Of a DNA stretch of 64,000 bases, positions 56,913-63,081 are shown piece after piece. The stretch's first letter is position 1; every line of letters begins with the position of its first letter. A program made the translations under genes and the position numbers. The notes under the pieces are model-generated. The model worked only from the letters and a program-made list of their open reading frames with translations, was not told where the DNA came from and made no database searches. The stretch lies in contig CAYYQL010000010.1 in NCBI GenBank assembly GCA_964473825.1, forward strand, positions 1 to 64,000, read 5' to 3'. The stretch comes from an uncultured archaeon (GTDB lineage Archaea; Asgardarchaeota; Thorarchaeia; Thorarchaeales; Thorarchaeaceae).

Positions 56913-57608
56913 CTAGGTGATGGAATGGAGATGGGCTCTTCCGCGTCTACCTACTAGCTTCACGATTCCTATCTTTCTGAGAGTGTACGTCATTTTCCTT
57001 GCCAGCGCAGGTGGCCGCTTGATTTGCTCTGCGAGTTCAGCATTGGTGAACGGACTCGTCAGGTCTTCTGGGATGAGTTTCAGTAAGTCTGATGGGCTCT
57101 CAAACAACTGACTATCCACTACTTCCACTAGATTAGTATCAACGATACTCCAACCTCTGCGTCTCCAACTTCCATGCCCGTCCTGCCTGCGAGTCTCCTC
57201 TGCCCTGACCTGCAGGACATCAATACTGAAACGAGCATGTTCAATGAGTCTGGGAAGGTAGACCATCTCATAGAAGACGTCGTGGAAACTCTCCTTCTTG
57301 GGTGAGAGACGCTTCTCAATTACTTCTGATCCATCTGGTGTTTCTTTCACTATGTACTTCTCTGATATCACAGGATAGACCAGGCGCACTCTGTGTCTGG
57401 TGAGAAGATCCCGGAGTTTCGCTTTGATCGCTGAGAAACTTGTGGTCTGTATCTCGATTAAGAGATCATCTCGTACGATATCGATTACATAACCATCTAC
57501 CTCGAACTCAACACAATCGCCAGGTTCTGTATACCACTCCTTCAGTCCGGCATGGAGTGAGCGCTCTTGTAGCGTTCCGATATGCGGGCTCGAGGGATTT
57601 TTCGCCAT
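56913..57608 (-). CDS. PD-(D/E)xK nuclease-like protein with C-terminal wHTH
   Basis: ERSLH...E..VDGYVIDI...LIEIQT. Confidence 0.7.
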   Translation of the reverse strand: MAKNPSSPHIGTLQERSLHAGLKEWYTEPGDCVEFEVDGYVIDIVRDDLLIEIQTTSFSAIKAKLRDLLTRHRVRLVYPVISEKYIVKETPDGSEVIEKRLSPKKESFHDVFYEMVYLPRLIEHARFSIDVLQVRAEETRRQDGHGSWRRRGWSIVDTNLVEVVDSQLFESPSDLLKLIPEDLTSPFTNAELAEQIKRPPALARKMTYTLRKIGIVKLVGRRGRAHLHSIT

Positions 57609-57733
57609 ATTACTGCACTCGCTGTACACAATCTCCAGCTTTCCACTTGGGATGAACAGGCCAATAGTCGGGGTGAAAAAAGACACGGCCGAGGATTCAG
57701 CCCACGGCCTATTCTAGATGGCGGATATCGCTT

Positions 57734-57898
57734 CTATTCCTTCAGCGTCAAGTCGTCACCGCAACAAGTGAAACTACAGCCGCACTGGTCCTCGTCGTTG
57801 CAGCACTCCGTACACTCGCTGAGGATTTTGATTTCAAGTCCACAGGTCTCGCATGCATAGACCTGTCCTTTTTTCATATCATGACAATGTAGTGACAT
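57734..57898 (-). CDS. Small Cys-rich metal-binding protein (desulforedoxin-like)
   Basis: GQVYACETCG...FTCCGDDL with an extra Cys-rich loop. Confidence 0.75.
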   Translation of the reverse strand: MSLHCHDMKKGQVYACETCGLEIKILSECTECCNDEDQCGCSFTCCGDDLTLKE

Positions 57899-58074
57899 TT
57901 CTTCAACCTCTCCACAATTTCGTGTCTTCCCGATATGTTTTGTACATATGTTCTTTGTGCTATCTCGAAGCGTTGTGCTTGGGTTGGTGCTCAATAATAC
58001 TCCCTCTTAAAGGAGGCTGCTTCCAACTCACTCTAGTATAGAGTCGACCGTATAAACGCGAGGTAGCAATAGAG

Positions 58075-58833
58075 ATGGATGATCATGTTGAATCTGAGCT
58101 CTACGCGTCGATAGCCACGCTGGATCAGTTCAAGAAGATGTTCGACATGGGCGCTGTGGATGTTCGTTCCTACGAGCGCGAATCAGAGGCTCTTGTCATG
58201 GATATCCGAGAGAATCTTGATAGATTGCGTCGGATGGGCAGAGATGTAACCGGATTCTTTGAGAGTGAGGGCATTGTTTCCCGTTTTCCCGAAGCCGCAG
58301 GAGTGCTTCGAATTCTACCACAACAGTCTGCTGCTTCCATGCAGGGGATGACGTCGGATGAATACTATGACTACATTGGTCTGGCGGTGCTTGACGTTGC
58401 AACTGAGAACGCAACAAAGGGTCTTATGGGTTTGGCAGAGCTGATTGTGGACGTTGTACGACGAACCCCCGAACTCAAATCCGTCAGCTATAATGATGTG
58501 ATAGAGGCAGTGGATCGAGTTGCAGAGCACGGTCTCATTCCAGGAATTCGAACACTAAGCGGAGGCGTCAAAGTTGTTGAATTGAGGCCTTTGGAACTTC
58601 GGCAAGACCAGGCTGATGTCATCAATCTCGCAGCGTCCAAAGGATTTGTTTCTATTGAGGAAGTAATCATGAAGCTGAAATGGTCTGAAGACCACGCTCG
58701 AACCGTCCTCTCAAGCCTTGTGGAGGCAGGCATGGCTGTGGCCGACATCCGATTCAGCACGGGGGGAAGATACTACTTTCCCGGCCTAAGATCAAGGACA
58801 GATGTTGACTCGAATGGCAAGCATAACCGCTAG
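58075..58833 (+). CDS. ESCRT protein: Vps28-N-like domain fused to a Vps22/36 (EAP30) domain
   Basis: N-terminal ELYASIATLDQFKKMFDMGAVDVRSYE. C-terminal DEYYDYIG...GLMGLAEL...VSYNDVIEAV...LKWSEDHARTVLSSLVEAGMAVAD...YYFPG. Confidence 0.8.
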   Translation: MDDHVESELYASIATLDQFKKMFDMGAVDVRSYERESEALVMDIRENLDRLRRMGRDVTGFFESEGIVSRFPEAAGVLRILPQQSAASMQGMTSDEYYDYIGLAVLDVATENATKGLMGLAELIVDVVRRTPELKSVSYNDVIEAVDRVAEHGLIPGIRTLSGGVKVVELRPLELRQDQADVINLAASKGFVSIEEVIMKLKWSEDHARTVLSSLVEAGMAVADIRFSTGGRYYFPGLRSRTDVDSNGKHNR

Positions 58834-58837
58834 CCTG

Positions 58838-59542
58838 TCATACGACCAGCACAACAGCGCCGCGTTCCTTGTCTACCCATCTCGCATAACCACGTTCTAC
58901 AAGCAGTTCCATGATACGGCGAAGGTCGCCCTCCGGGAGGCGTCCGAAACCTTCTCTACCCTGTTGGATGACAATCGACTTAACATCAAGATGCATCAAG
59001 CCCGTTTCAAGTGCCCAACGGTAGATATGGTCAGCCCAGTCCTCCAAAGGTCGCCAGTAGACCCGAAGCTGACGCTTCTCATCTCCGATCCACTGTGCTA
59101 TGTTCTTTTCTACAAGGGTATCTCCAAGGATCTCAAACGCATCAGCCTTACCGACAATCCCGCTAAACGGACTCTCGGTTATGAAAGTCGTAATCGATAT
59201 GACGTGAAGCTTCTGGCTCTCCATCCATGTGAGTATGAAGTCTGTCCAATCTCGTGCCCAGAGTTGTATGCCCTCTTCGTAATCTGGAACCTGATACATC
59301 CACTCCGCCTCTTCGGCATTCCCCCAGCGCGGCTGGATCTCCTCGGCTTCAATTGCAGTCTCTCGTGATACAGCAGCCTCTTCTTCGGACTCTGTGACGG
59401 TCACAGCTTCTTTTACACTGACTTCGGGTACGTGTTGATCCGTAGAAGTCTTGGTCACGATTTGCTCTTCTGACTCTTCTTCCGACTCGCGCTTCTTCTC
59501 GACGTTCTTCTCCTTCTCTTTTGATCTCTCACGAACATTCAT
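58838..59542 (-). CDS. vps25: ESCRT-II Vps25
   Basis: WxxDWTDFIL, VYWRPLEDWADHIYRW, LLVERGYA. Confidence 0.88.
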   Translation of the reverse strand: MNVRERSKEKEKNVEKKRESEEESEEQIVTKTSTDQHVPEVSVKEAVTVTESEEEAAVSRETAIEAEEIQPRWGNAEEAEWMYQVPDYEEGIQLWARDWTDFILTWMESQKLHVISITTFITESPFSGIVGKADAFEILGDTLVEKNIAQWIGDEKRQLRVYWRPLEDWADHIYRWALETGLMHLDVKSIVIQQGREGFGRLPEGDLRRIMELLVERGYARWVDKERGAVVLVV

Positions 59543-59545
59543 CAG

Positions 59546-60754
59546 CTACGAGCCCTCCGCCCAGTCTATATATCGCTTGACATCTTCGGGCGACGTTGCA
59601 GGTCTGATATTCTCGATAGCTGATAAGAAGTCATAGCGCTCAACAGGTCTCAAGTCGAATATTTCCGACTCTTCATCCAAACGTCCACTTGTTTGAAGTT
59701 CTCGAATCGGCTCCATTGCCGCCTCTCGGCACACAACACTGATGTCCCGTCCACTGTATCCCTCTGTCAGGTCAGCCAACTCCGCGAAGTCTACGCTGGG
59801 GGCTATCTCTATCTCCTCCATATGAATATTGAATATCTTCTTTCGAGCCTCGCCACCTGGCAATGGCACATGGATTCTTTTCTCAAATCTTGACCGCAGA
59901 GCAAAGTCGAGCTCCCAAGGAAGGTTTGTGGCTCCGATCACTGTGATTCTCTCGTCCTCGCGACTACCAAGGCCCTGTAACTCGGTCAGCAGCTGCGTCT
60001 TCAGACGCCTTTCACCTCCAACATCATCACCGGACCTGGAAACTCCTATAGAATCGAGCTCATCGATGAATATTATAGCGGGTGGATGCTTTCGTGCCAG
60101 TTCGAAGAGAGTCATTACCAGTCGTTCTGATTCGCCGAGCCACTTGCTTACTATATTGCCGGCTGACACATTGAAGAATGTCGCGTCAATCTCTGAGGCC
60201 ACGGCCTTTGCTATGAGTGTTTTACCACATCCCGCAGGACCATAAAGCAAGATGCCTCTCCAGGGTTGTCTCGCCTTTCCACGGAAAAGCTCGGGATGCT
60301 TCATGGGCGCAAGAATCGCGTCATCAATTGCCTGCTTTGCATCCTCGAGATCTGCGACCTCTGACATTCTAACATCTGGGCGCTCCGAAACTATTGTATC
60401 TTCTATCATATCTCGCAGTCTGACGGTATCCTCGTCAATCTCTTTCTCTTCGGCAGAGACTTGAGCAGGCACTGGCTCTTCTCTCTCAAGGGGGTCTGGT
60501 GGTGTTTCGAGTCCATGGACAGGTCCTGACTTCTTCTTGATGCCGGAGAGATACCGGACCCTGTCAACGCACTCTTGTGCTCTCTTGAGATAGTGTTTCC
60601 TGATAGAGGGCAATGCTGCCGAGTTTGACAGTTTAATCAGCACCTTGCTGGCCTTTAGATAATACTGGCAGGCCTCCTTTCCCATCCCTCTCTTGTCTAG
60701 GTCTATAGCCTTGTCAAGTAGCGCTTTGAGACCCTGATCTATTCTATCCACCAT
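59546..60754 (-). CDS. vps4: Vps4 AAA+ ATPase with MIT domain
   Basis: MIT domain (KAIDLD...YLKRA); PWRGILLYGPAGCGKT, SKWLGESE, IDELD, ATNLPWELD, RFEKRI. Confidence 0.93.
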   Translation of the reverse strand: MVDRIDQGLKALLDKAIDLDKRGMGKEACQYYLKASKVLIKLSNSAALPSIRKHYLKRAQECVDRVRYLSGIKKKSGPVHGLETPPDPLEREEPVPAQVSAEEKEIDEDTVRLRDMIEDTIVSERPDVRMSEVADLEDAKQAIDDAILAPMKHPELFRGKARQPWRGILLYGPAGCGKTLIAKAVASEIDATFFNVSAGNIVSKWLGESERLVMTLFELARKHPPAIIFIDELDSIGVSRSGDDVGGERRLKTQLLTELQGLGSREDERITVIGATNLPWELDFALRSRFEKRIHVPLPGGEARKKIFNIHMEEIEIAPSVDFAELADLTEGYSGRDISVVCREAAMEPIRELQTSGRLDEESEIFDLRPVERYDFLSAIENIRPATSPEDVKRYIDWAEGS

Positions 60755-60914: not shown

Positions 60915-61529
60915 TTGGGTCCAATTCGAAAGGCTTTCAGATGGGGCAAAAAACGCCCAGATGTCGGTGAAGTTTCAAGTCAGCTTCGGGTTCTGTCAAA
61001 ACAGCTGGCGCGAGAACGCAACAAACTCGAGAAAGAAGCTCGTGATACTAGGGCTCGAGCTGTACGTGCCAGGAAGGAGGGCAGGATTGACGCGTACAAG
61101 ACCTATGCCGCTGAGATGGTCCGGTTCCGACGCTTCGCTCTCTCTGTGGACAAGTCCCGTCTTCAAATCCTGAAGATCTTGGCCTATATCACTCGAGCGC
61201 AGACCACAGCCAAGGCTAATGTTGCACTGGAGAAAGTCGCTGACATCCTGGGGCTCTTAGGTGACACCACGGACACACTGAAGGTCGTGGAGAATGTGGA
61301 TGAGATTGGTCGTCGGTTGGAGCAGTTTGAGATAGAGTCCAGCATGTCGACAGAAGCCCTCGACACGACTGAGATTGGTGAAGTCACTTCAGAAGAGCTC
61401 GCTACGGCCATGGCCGAGATAGATGCAGAAGCGGGTGCATCCACATCTCGCGCGAAAAAGGCTCCTATGACAGAATCTGAAGAACTAGAGGCTGAGATCA
61501 AATCACTGGAACAAGAACTAGGTGTCTAG
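60915..61529 (+). CDS. ESCRT-III, Vps2/24/46 class
   Basis: Basic N-terminal helices aligning with CHMP1-3, an acidic C-terminus, and a MIM1-like EELEAEIKSL. Confidence 0.85.
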   Translation: MGPIRKAFRWGKKRPDVGEVSSQLRVLSKQLARERNKLEKEARDTRARAVRARKEGRIDAYKTYAAEMVRFRRFALSVDKSRLQILKILAYITRAQTTAKANVALEKVADILGLLGDTTDTLKVVENVDEIGRRLEQFEIESSMSTEALDTTEIGEVTSEELATAMAEIDAEAGASTSRAKKAPMTESEELEAEIKSLEQELGV

Positions 61530-61530
61530 C

Positions 61531-63081
61531 TCACCAGGAAGAATCAGATCTCTGCTTCATGGCCTCATACATTTCTTTCCGAGTTCTGTAGGAGTCGAGC
61601 ATTAGACTCCTGTATCTTCTCACGAAATCTTCAGGGACAAGCCGTCGATTCCTAAATAGGTCCACGGTTCGCGAAACTGCCTGCTGCAAGTCTCTGGCAT
61701 CTCTTTTGAGGTGCTGTATCTGGGGGTCGGCACCTCCGAGTCGGTCTTCACGTCCGAGAGATGCTCGAGAGAGGACGTCCTCAAGGTGGTCGGTGAAATG
61801 CTGAGCTCCATACTTGTCCATGGTGCCATAGCCTGCTGCAGGGCGTTTCTGATAGTGATATCTCTCATTCATAGTGAGGTTTTCTGCGCGTTTCCGATTG
61901 CCTGAAGACAAGAGTGAATACACAAGTTCTTCTATCTTGAGACGTACGTCACTGATATTGAAACTCGACTGTTCAATGCGCCTCACCCGCTGCATATCCG
62001 TCTGCATGTATCTATCGAACTTCTTTGCTATCTCTAGATAGTCTGGAAGAACCTCCTCGGTCTGCTCGTCACAGGATATCTTTAGGTCTCCCTGTTTCAT
62101 CTTGAGAACGAGGCGCTTTCTGATCCTCCCGTCCTCCTCCATGGAGTTGAGATAGACGAGGGGGAAATCGAAGAGGACTTCCATCTTCTTTCGAAAAGTT
62201 CCCACTTCGGCTATGAACACAATTCTCTTGTTCGTTATATAGAGTGTCCCCGTTGCCTTGTCGTGCTTAAGGAAATCGCTACCTGTAACTCGAATCTCGG
62301 GCAATGCGCAGACAGGGAGTTCATTGACAGACAGTTCAGCGTGTTCGTAGAATCCCGCAAATTCCTTACGATAGTAGTCAAGGCCCTCAAGCTGGGTTGT
62401 CGATTCGTCTAGTCGAACAACGCAGTCATCCAACGCATCATCAACACCAGACTTGAAATGCTCTCCCAGTTCTCCAATTCGGTTTGCAACACCCTCAATA
62501 AACGGAAACTGATCGGGGGTCCAGCCATTGGGGTCGATTATTCCCTTGGTCTCGGCAGCCATCTGACGTCCGACCATATCTGCTTGGTTGACAACTCTCT
62601 TTTTCACGGCCAATGCTTCATCTTGGATTCTCTCGATATTGTCTTCAATCCAGTGATAATGGAGAAAATTGGCCATTCTCAATGAAACCAGTAGCCTCTT
62701 CGAGGCAGTAAGCTTGCTGTTGAACTCCCTCAACTTGAGATGACCATACTGGAGTGACATAATGGACTCTCGCAGCTTCTTTCCAAGGTTCCTTCTCTTG
62801 TCAGCTATAGCGACTATCTTGGAGGAGTGACATCGGGGGCAGATCTCTTCTATTCTTTTCCCAATGCTCAGTTCTTCACACTCGCATTCGGGGCACTTTT
62901 CGAAGGGCCCCCCGGCCTCTGGAGTTCCTAGAGTATGATGGCACTCTGAACAGACATAGTACTCCGTGGTCTTACTCTCAAGACAATCCAGACAGAAGTT
63001 CTCGCCGCAGTCTTCGCACATGTGAGTTGCCGTGATTCTCTCGCAAACTCTGCATTTTCTGTGGGAGCTGCCTACCTTCAA
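61531..63081 (-). CDS. B-box/Zn-finger, coiled-coil, GRAM(PH)-like and steadiness-box-like protein
   Basis: CRVC...CEDC...CLDC; three further CxxC pairs; GTLYITNKRIVF; C-terminal DLFRNRRLVPEDFVRRYRSL. Confidence 0.7.
   Translation of the reverse strand: MKVGSSHRKCRVCERITATHMCEDCGENFCLDCLESKTTEYYVCSECHHTLGTPEAGGPFEKCPECECEELSIGKRIEEICPRCHSSKIVAIADKRRNLGKKLRESIMSLQYGHLKLREFNSKLTASKRLLVSLRMANFLHYHWIEDNIERIQDEALAVKKRVVNQADMVGRQMAAETKGIIDPNGWTPDQFPFIEGVANRIGELGEHFKSGVDDALDDCVVRLDESTTQLEGLDYYRKEFAGFYEHAELSVNELPVCALPEIRVTGSDFLKHDKATGTLYITNKRIVFIAEVGTFRKKMEVLFDFPLVYLNSMEEDGRIRKRLVLKMKQGDLKISCDEQTEEVLPDYLEIAKKFDRYMQTDMQRVRRIEQSSFNISDVRLKIEELVYSLLSSGNRKRAENLTMNERYHYQKRPAAGYGTMDKYGAQHFTDHLEDVLSRASLGREDRLGGADPQIQHLKRDARDLQQAVSRTVDLFRNRRLVPEDFVRRYRSLMLDSYRTRKEMYEAMKQRSDSSW

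Follow-up and report, generated by a model that had tools for sequence, protein, structure and literature searches.

The window, i.e. the whole 64,000-nucleotide stretch of DNA that was analyzed (contig C10 of a Thorarchaeia genome that is 95.7% complete), carries a group of ESCRT genes encoding Vps25, Vps4, an ESCRT-III protein, and a Zn-ribbon/PH/coiled-coil/SB protein (Znr_PH_CC_SB, corresponding to ThorAB25_08990, 'SB'). Next to them lies a gene in which the front domain of the ESCRT-I subunit Vps28 continues into the body of the ESCRT-II subunit Vps22, an arrangement that had been proposed in an original prediction from the sequence and is confirmed here (Table 1). A scan for promoters and terminators gave results at chance level, the model used being bacterial and the host archaeal. 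On the other side of the fusion gene, we noticed a small Cys-rich ORF in divergent orientation and a 257-aa ORF resembling PD-(D/E)xK nucleases by eye.

Table 1 Coordinates of the fusion gene, its neighbours, and related genes in this and other genomes.
Feature	Coordinates	Strand	Evidence or remark
257-aa ORF	56913-57686	-	weak C-terminal HTH matches
Small Cys-rich ORF	57734-57994	-	weak Desulfoferrodoxin N-domain match (E 0.047)
Vps28(N/SB)-Vps22 fusion gene	58075..58833	+	252 aa
Vps28 N-terminal domain, aa 1-83	58075..58323	+	profile and structure matches
Variable linker (fusion junction), aa 84-93	58324..58353	+	low model confidence, orthologue alignment
Vps22/Snf8 tandem winged helices, aa 94-239	58354..58791	+	end in YFPGL motif
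Vps25 (ESCRT-II)	58838..59542	-	PF05871 E 2e-11; convergent with fusion gene
Vps4 (MIT + AAA + Vps4_C)	59546..60754	-	Pfam
ESCRT-III (Snf7 family)	60915..61529	+	PF03357 E 5e-8
Znr_PH_CC_SB protein	61531..63081	-	weak PH matches
Vps23/37-like SB, C-terminal 66 aa of the Znr_PH_CC_SB protein	61534-61731	-	predicted partner of the Vps28 head
Coiled-coil/bundle protein (C29)	G000:C29:29996-30514 = L061:5997-6515	+	Vps28-CTD-like structure
C29 paralogue	C38:14366-15115	+	coiled coil, divergent bundle
C29 paralogue	C37:8080-9102	-	coiled coil, divergent bundle
C29 paralogue	C4:33440-34393	-	coiled coil, divergent bundle
Vps22 paralogue, ~770 aa	G000:C4:133438-135771 = L062:6439-8772	+	complete Vps22-like C-terminal region
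SB-only Vps28 (G297), 159-aa frame	L060:6473-6949	-	convergent with vps4
Vps28-C genes after full-length vps28	L043:6561-6842; L044:6840-7124; L049:6852-7163; L054:6944-7237; L058:6795-7190
Odinarchaeia SB-wH2 fusion P0134 (GCA_054383955.1)	L100:8001-8900
Ranarchaeia SB-wH2 fusion P0128 (GCA_054386775.1)	L098:3136-4083

Vps28-type head and Vps22-type body

The N-terminal part of the protein scores poorly in Pfam: VPS28 was not matched in a search with the whole protein, and aa 1-85 alone gave PF03997 as the sole match, below threshold (E 0.18). We dropped the reading of this weak score as a sign that a Vps28 domain is absent after tests with orthologues and profiles. Among 29 orthologous N-termini, 26 match PF03997 (best 1.9e-4), Vps23_core being absent from their top 25 Pfam matches, and the head of a close homologue from the second Thorarchaeia family (locus L041) exceeds the curated cut-off of PF03997 (27 bits). 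With a profile of the head, four yeast Vps28 chains rank first in the PDB, although weakly (E 0.02-0.04); among 1.8 billion proteins, the full-length Odinarchaeia Vps28 P0263 matches aa 5-85 of the fusion (E 6e-6). The Asgard Vps28 HMM finds the head with an E of 7e-18, and hhalign of the head against 13 full-length Asgard Vps28 sequences gives 99.3% (E 1.8e-20 over 80 columns). The assignment of residues ~5-78 to the Vps28 N-terminal domain, as first made by eye, was thus borne out, the domain spanning aa 4-83. The SB of the head is of the Vps28 type and not of the Vps23/37 type, and in other Asgards the matches of the head are full-length Vps28 proteins.

The AF2 model agrees with this assignment. 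It contains a steadiness-box hairpin (helices 2-24 and 30-53) followed by short Vps28-N helices (58-64, 67-70, and 72-78), with a pLDDT of 83-94 in the head and below 50 at aa 81-88; the orientation of the head relative to the winged helices is undefined (pTM 0.41). Residues 1-80 superimpose on human VPS28 from the ESCRT-I headpiece (6VME_E; Z 11.5, rmsd 2.0 Å, 78 aligned), which ranks first of 48,161 chains, and on the yeast N-terminal domains (2CAZ, 2F6M; Z 9.1 for 2CAZ_E). When the full fusion model was used, the top of the Foldseek list was ESCRT-II alone, and the Vps28 match emerged with VIA-align.

The second half was originally described as EAP30 winged helices of Vps22/36 at residues ~95-240. 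The EAP30 domain (PF04157) was indeed found at aa 89-224 (E 6e-14), and this region superimposes on eukaryotic VPS22/SNF8 (3CUQ_A, 1U5T_A; Foldseek to 2ZME_A, E 9e-10). Human SNF8/VPS22 matches aa 94-239 with an E of 5e-15, VPS36 with an E of 0.46, and the Pfam search found no GLUE domain in the fusion protein. Judged by sequence, the fused ESCRT-II subunit is therefore of the Vps22 type, and the Vps36 part of the description falls away.

An ordinary Vps22 begins with N-terminal helices that are common to 17 of 17 Vps22s from the loci sampled outside the Thorarchaeia, to the Loki, Heimdall, and Odin reference Vps22s, and to eukaryotic Vps22. In most of 30 Thorarchaeia loci, the alignment with a profile of these 17 ordinary Asgard sequences starts at profile position ~95-101 of 249, the earliest start being at position 78-83, i.e. 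the ordinary helices (approximately profile positions 1-95) are missing in the fusion and in all 30 loci. The possibility that the N-terminus of the fusion is simply this ordinary arm was rejected on these grounds. The arm has thus been lost and replaced by Vps28-N, rather than the head having been added in front of it. The source genome also encodes a ~770-aa Vps22 paralogue in which the ordinary arm is retained (profile 18-247, E 5e-42). A CarboxypepD_reg (Ig-like) domain precedes its Vps22-like region, and it has many relatives of 760-800 aa.

We also considered an assembly chimera or a read-through. The fusion has 136 homologues, nearly all full-length and 60-90% identical among those listed, and head and winged helices lie in a single frame in 30 of 30 Thorarchaeia loci, which excludes an artefact of this kind.

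The architecture itself was already published in 2024. Makarova et al. (mBio, PMC10936438) describe Asgard Vps22 (cog.002769), in contrast to eukaryotic Vps22, as a fusion with an SB, and their Table S3 lists residues 1-70 of the Thorarchaeota Vps22 KXH75178.1, which according to that entry has the same domain pair as our fusion, as a VPS28 N-terminal domain - SB (PF03997.15, HHpred 99). The HHpred comparison and the literature check proposed with the original prediction therefore both lead to this paper. Our fusion agrees with the published Thorarchaeia type of ~250 aa, SB(Vps28-N) followed by wH2, including the vps25, vps4, ESCRT-III, and Znr_PH_CC_SB neighbours, the last of which Makarova et al. 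name as a likely ESCRT-I component. By description the gene belongs to asCOG cog.002769, and it is also the direct orthologue of ThorAB25_09030, which Hatano et al. (2022, Nat Commun, PMC9192718) used as 'Vps22' in yeast two-hybrid (Y2H) assays; its N-terminus (MHERLHSELFASIATLDQ...) is the same, and the SB, ESCRT-III, Vps4, Vps25, and Vps22 genes have neighbouring locus tags there, as here. In the parts of PMC9192718 consulted, ThorAB25_09030 is treated as a plain Vps22 with no mention of the Vps28 head, and the Thorarchaeia construct list holds no Vps28 other than this orthologue. Our literature search found no later paper devoted to the Vps28-N/Vps22 fusion of the Thorarchaeia. Because the fusion is already published, its value is limited; what is added here (its restriction to the Thorarchaeia, its likely origin by deletion, the arm loss, a probable independent recurrence, and the remaining Vps28-C-like proteins) sharpens the view already in print and does not overturn it. 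In the consulted parts of PMC10936438, unlike in the present analysis, arm loss, deletion origin, and recurrence are not discussed.

Distribution of the fusion and its origin

In a search with the head profile, 69 of the 76 genomes from the family of the window showed a single matching gene, i.e. nearly all Thorarchaeia genomes have one copy; the second Thorarchaeia family was matched too, and most other Asgard families with one gene. We examined 20 loci from outside the family of the window. One holds the same fusion (L041), one a frame with an SB only, and 18 a full-length Vps28, i.e. SB plus CTD, one of these 18 being the Heimdall UEV-Vps23-Vps28 fusion. The SB-only frame lies in an 82%-complete genome (G297), in which a canonical CTD was not found. 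Two large Asgard families (f9 and f24) show weak matches to the CTD profile and are mostly missed by the head profile, suggesting that their Vps28 has strongly diverged, and in the phylum survey neither profile was matched in families f17 and f20. The fusion is a trait of the Thorarchaeia rather than of all Asgards, and in our survey is confined beyond them to two small lineages. This distribution answers the question on its spread across Asgard classes that accompanied the original prediction. It also indicates that the general wording in PMC10936438, in which Asgard Vps22 carries an SB, overstates the spread of the fusion.

The other loci also reveal the arrangement from which the fusion arose. 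In 16 of the 18 non-Thorarchaeia loci with a full-length Vps28, a vps22 with the ordinary arm lies downstream of vps28 on the same strand; nine of these pairs abut and three are separated by a small Vps28-C gene. Stand-alone Vps28-C genes of this kind were described in PMC10936438, and we recorded five immediately after full-length vps28 genes (Table 1). One locus (L054) has the gene order of the window with vps28 and vps22 unfused, and its Vps22 adjoins the Thorarchaeia clade in the winged-helix tree with modest support (81/85). The winged helices of the Thorarchaeia group in a single clade (100/97), which lies within the ordinary Vps22s. The adjacency of vps28 and vps22 is therefore ancestral to the fusion. 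The simplest and most likely origin, inferred from this adjacency and from the distribution, would be an in-frame deletion in the Thorarchaeia ancestor across an adjacent, co-directional vps28-vps22 pair, cutting out everything between Vps28-N and the first winged helix, including both the CTD and the N-terminal helices of Vps22.

Similar fusions occur in the Odinarchaeia (P0134) and in the Ranarchaeia (P0128), each known from 2-3 MAG contigs, and both have a head that is recognized by the Asgard Vps28 profile (E 6e-14 and 1e-12, respectively). P0134 directly follows a UEV-Vps23-like gene at a locus with a ubiquitin and a RING gene, with an ORF that looks kinase-like by eye between P0134 and vps25. 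P0128 has a longer linker and is accompanied by vps25, vps4, ESCRT-III, and an SB-bearing Zn-finger gene in the same order as in the Thorarchaeia. The CTD profile found no CTD at either locus. In the winged-helix tree, P0134 falls inside a starred clade of ordinary Vps22s of Odin and Loki type (95/99); this tree rejects one shared origin for all fusions (p-AU 0.016) and forces at least two changes, with three across the 5-95% bootstrap range. The SB tree, built on 80 columns and with long branches, places P0134 with Odin Vps28 (96/66) and is compatible with a single origin (p-AU 0.33). The winged-helix tree thus points to a probable independent origin of a similar fusion in one Odinarchaeia lineage, and the Ranarchaeia fusion possibly represents a further independent origin.

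These fusions, and the statement in section 6 of PMC10936438 that 'Vps22 family proteins are fused to an SB', could also be read as traces of an ancestral SB-wH2 form of Vps22 present in all Asgards and split in other lineages. This reading is largely refuted, and we consider it extremely improbable, given the ordinary arm in all 17 sampled non-Thorarchaeia, the reference, and the eukaryotic Vps22s, the failure of the fusions to form one clade in the winged-helix tree, and the grouping of the Odin fusion with Vps22 and Vps28 of Odin type.

Fate of the Vps28 C-terminal domain

In eukaryotes, Vps28 and Vps22 are encoded as two chains, and the link between them is made by the Vps28 CTD, which binds Vps36. 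Compared with eukaryotic ESCRT-I/II, the Thorarchaeia fusion comes without a CTD, without Vps36, and without the N-terminal helices of Vps22. The original prediction had taken the fusion as a covalent replacement of the contact between the Vps28 CTD and Vps36. This does not hold: Asgards are without a full-length Vps36, so the link that was replaced is that between Asgard Vps28 and Vps22. A fusion involving Vps28 is also found in the Heimdallarchaeia (UEV-Vps23-Vps28, HeimAB125_14070), likewise lineage-specific and with neighbouring ESCRT genes; that fusion lies within ESCRT-I and, unlike in the Thorarchaeia, the CTD of Vps28 is kept, as is a normal Vps22.

The prediction further held that the CTD is dispensed with, which is right for the cognate CTD and probably too strong for the fold. 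In the fusion protein, the match to the Vps28 profile is limited to profile positions 21-104 of 215, and a profile built from 19 Asgard Vps28 CTDs gave no match. With this CTD profile, a canonical CTD was found in none of 87 Thorarchaeia genomes, and the matches, in 196 of 301 phylum genomes (78 Thorarchaeia, 223-224 others), are all outside the Thorarchaeia, which amounts to 196 of 224 other Asgard genomes. In the source genome, no second Vps28-N was found, and searches with PF03997 and PF09454 returned non-significant matches only, that on contig C25 lying in an unrelated 630-aa frame.

One weak match was obtained in the source genome (E 0.18-0.25), an unannotated 172-aa protein on contig C29 that consists of a coiled coil and a four-helix bundle and is kept in ~80 of 87 Thorarchaeia genomes. 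Among known structures, its bundle is closest to Vps28 CTDs (2J9U_A, Z 11.8, rmsd 2.4 Å over 92), with a CheA HPt domain tying within 1 Z; the top Foldseek match is 2J9W (E 0.14), and hhalign to the Vps28 CTD gives a P of 5e-4. A search of the ESM Atlas with the bundle returned no matches, and a bundle profile did not find Vps28 among PDB sequences. Three paralogues combine a coiled coil with a divergent bundle (Table 1). The one on C38, which has weak BAR/Vps5 matches, is probably the published BAR-Vps28C protein, fitting the Thorarchaeia BAR-Vps28 of Eme et al. (2023) and KXH73277.1 of Makarova et al. Three to four divergent Vps28-C-like bundles thus probably persist in the Thorarchaeia on separate coiled-coil proteins, uncoupled from the fusion locus. 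Four-helix bundles are common, and for this reason the persistence of the domain is probable rather than proven. The ~770-aa Vps22 paralogue is a candidate partner of these orphan domains or of the fusion.

Predicted partner and possible role of the head

The gene for the SB protein is present in 80 of 87 Thorarchaeia genomes, usually on the contig of the fusion and ~3.5 kb away from it, and Vps23_core is matched by the C-terminal SB of 8 of its 28 orthologues (best 1.9e-4). We modelled two copies of this C-terminal SB with aa 1-82 of the fusion, a pairing suggested with the original prediction. The model predicts an SB:SB pair with an ipSAE of 0.84, against 0.00 for the best control; 58 of 80 solved complexes passed the mark used, as did 2 of 110 mismatched pairs, counts that are only roughly applicable here. 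Contacts agree by at least 92% between runs, the partner has a pLDDT of at least 86, and confident contacts are limited to one SB copy of the two. Those with the lowest error place the invariant A11, A14, and T15 of the head against the invariant Y40 and M44 of the partner fragment. As the pair resembles the solved ESCRT-I headpiece, the score may stem from this resemblance, and the model shows likeness rather than binding. Hatano et al. report that the free-standing SB protein of the Thorarchaeia may interact with 'Vps28', a statement that, in the consulted part of the paper, fits a pairing of the SB protein with the fusion head.

Conservation bears on whether the head has a partner at all. 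The head is less conserved than the winged helices, being 45-55% identical to most orthologues compared with ~70% for the whole protein, and neither ubiquitin nor UEV-Vps23 was detected in the source genome, as might be expected of a decayed Vps28 fragment carried along as a vestigial passenger. This seems very unlikely, considering that 13 columns of the head are invariant in 29 orthologues and cluster on the predicted interface, that the head is kept in both Thorarchaeia families sampled, and that it is modelled with the high confidence given above.

A different function is suggested by the self-interaction of Thorarchaeia Vps22 in Y2H (Hatano et al. 2022, PMC9192718): the head could be a self-dimerization module, an SB:SB homodimer that replaces the Vps22 arm and rebuilds the stalk of a Vps22 homodimer. 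Heimdall Vps22 dimerizes partly via aa 41-47, a region deleted in the Thorarchaeia fusion, and Odin Vps28 forms a transient dimer. However, Odin Vps28 is predominantly monomeric and interacts with Vps23, a further dimer surface of Heimdall Vps22 maps to the winged helices (aa 160-167), and both the retention of the nearby SB-protein gene and the score of the hetero SB model favour a heteromeric partner. We regard dimerization, the main rival to a bridging role, as an improbable, though still realistic, role of the head; the two are not mutually exclusive.

[quoted passage not shown] The Vps28 head and the C-terminal SB of the Znr_PH_CC_SB protein, whose PH domain is expected to bind the membrane, would form a headpiece of the ESCRT-I type, as modelled. 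Since the head is covalently tied to the winged helices, the step from ESCRT-I to ESCRT-II would occur within one molecule, and we infer that the covalent link serves as the bridge. From knowledge of eukaryotic ESCRT-II and from Asgard Y2H data, the winged helices would bind Vps25, which would nucleate ESCRT-III, and Vps4 would recycle ESCRT-III. The whole chain would thus run from the PH-bearing SB protein through the SB:SB headpiece, the covalent link, the winged helices, and Vps25 to ESCRT-III/Vps4. It would act in a lineage without detected ubiquitin or UEV: searches for ubiquitin and E2/UEV, run without a positive control, gave no match in the source genome, in agreement with the literature.

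The recurrence of the fusion suggests a further reading. The CTD and the Vps22 arm would have been deleted together and replaced by a short covalent linker at least twice, in all Thorarchaeia sampled and in one Odinarchaeia lineage that still has ubiquitin and a UEV-Vps23-like gene, and possibly also in the Ranarchaeia. This could mean that they were mutual partners, and that the ancestral interface of ESCRT-I and ESCRT-II, predating the Vps36 GLUE/NZF link, was formed by the Vps28 CTD and the N-terminal arm of Vps22. We put this forward tentatively, as plausible but somewhat short of probable; we did not find it stated in the consulted parts of the relevant literature. If true, it would provide a testable model of the pre-eukaryotic link.

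In summary, our results narrow the published claim that Asgard Vps22 generally bears an SB. The Thorarchaeia fusion probably ties two membrane-sorting complexes into one chain, and represents a natural experiment on the handover from ESCRT-I to ESCRT-II in archaeal relatives of eukaryotes that are without Vps36. The SB protein, the fusion, Vps25, ESCRT-III, and Vps4 would constitute a minimal, ubiquitin-free ESCRT chain for reconstitution.
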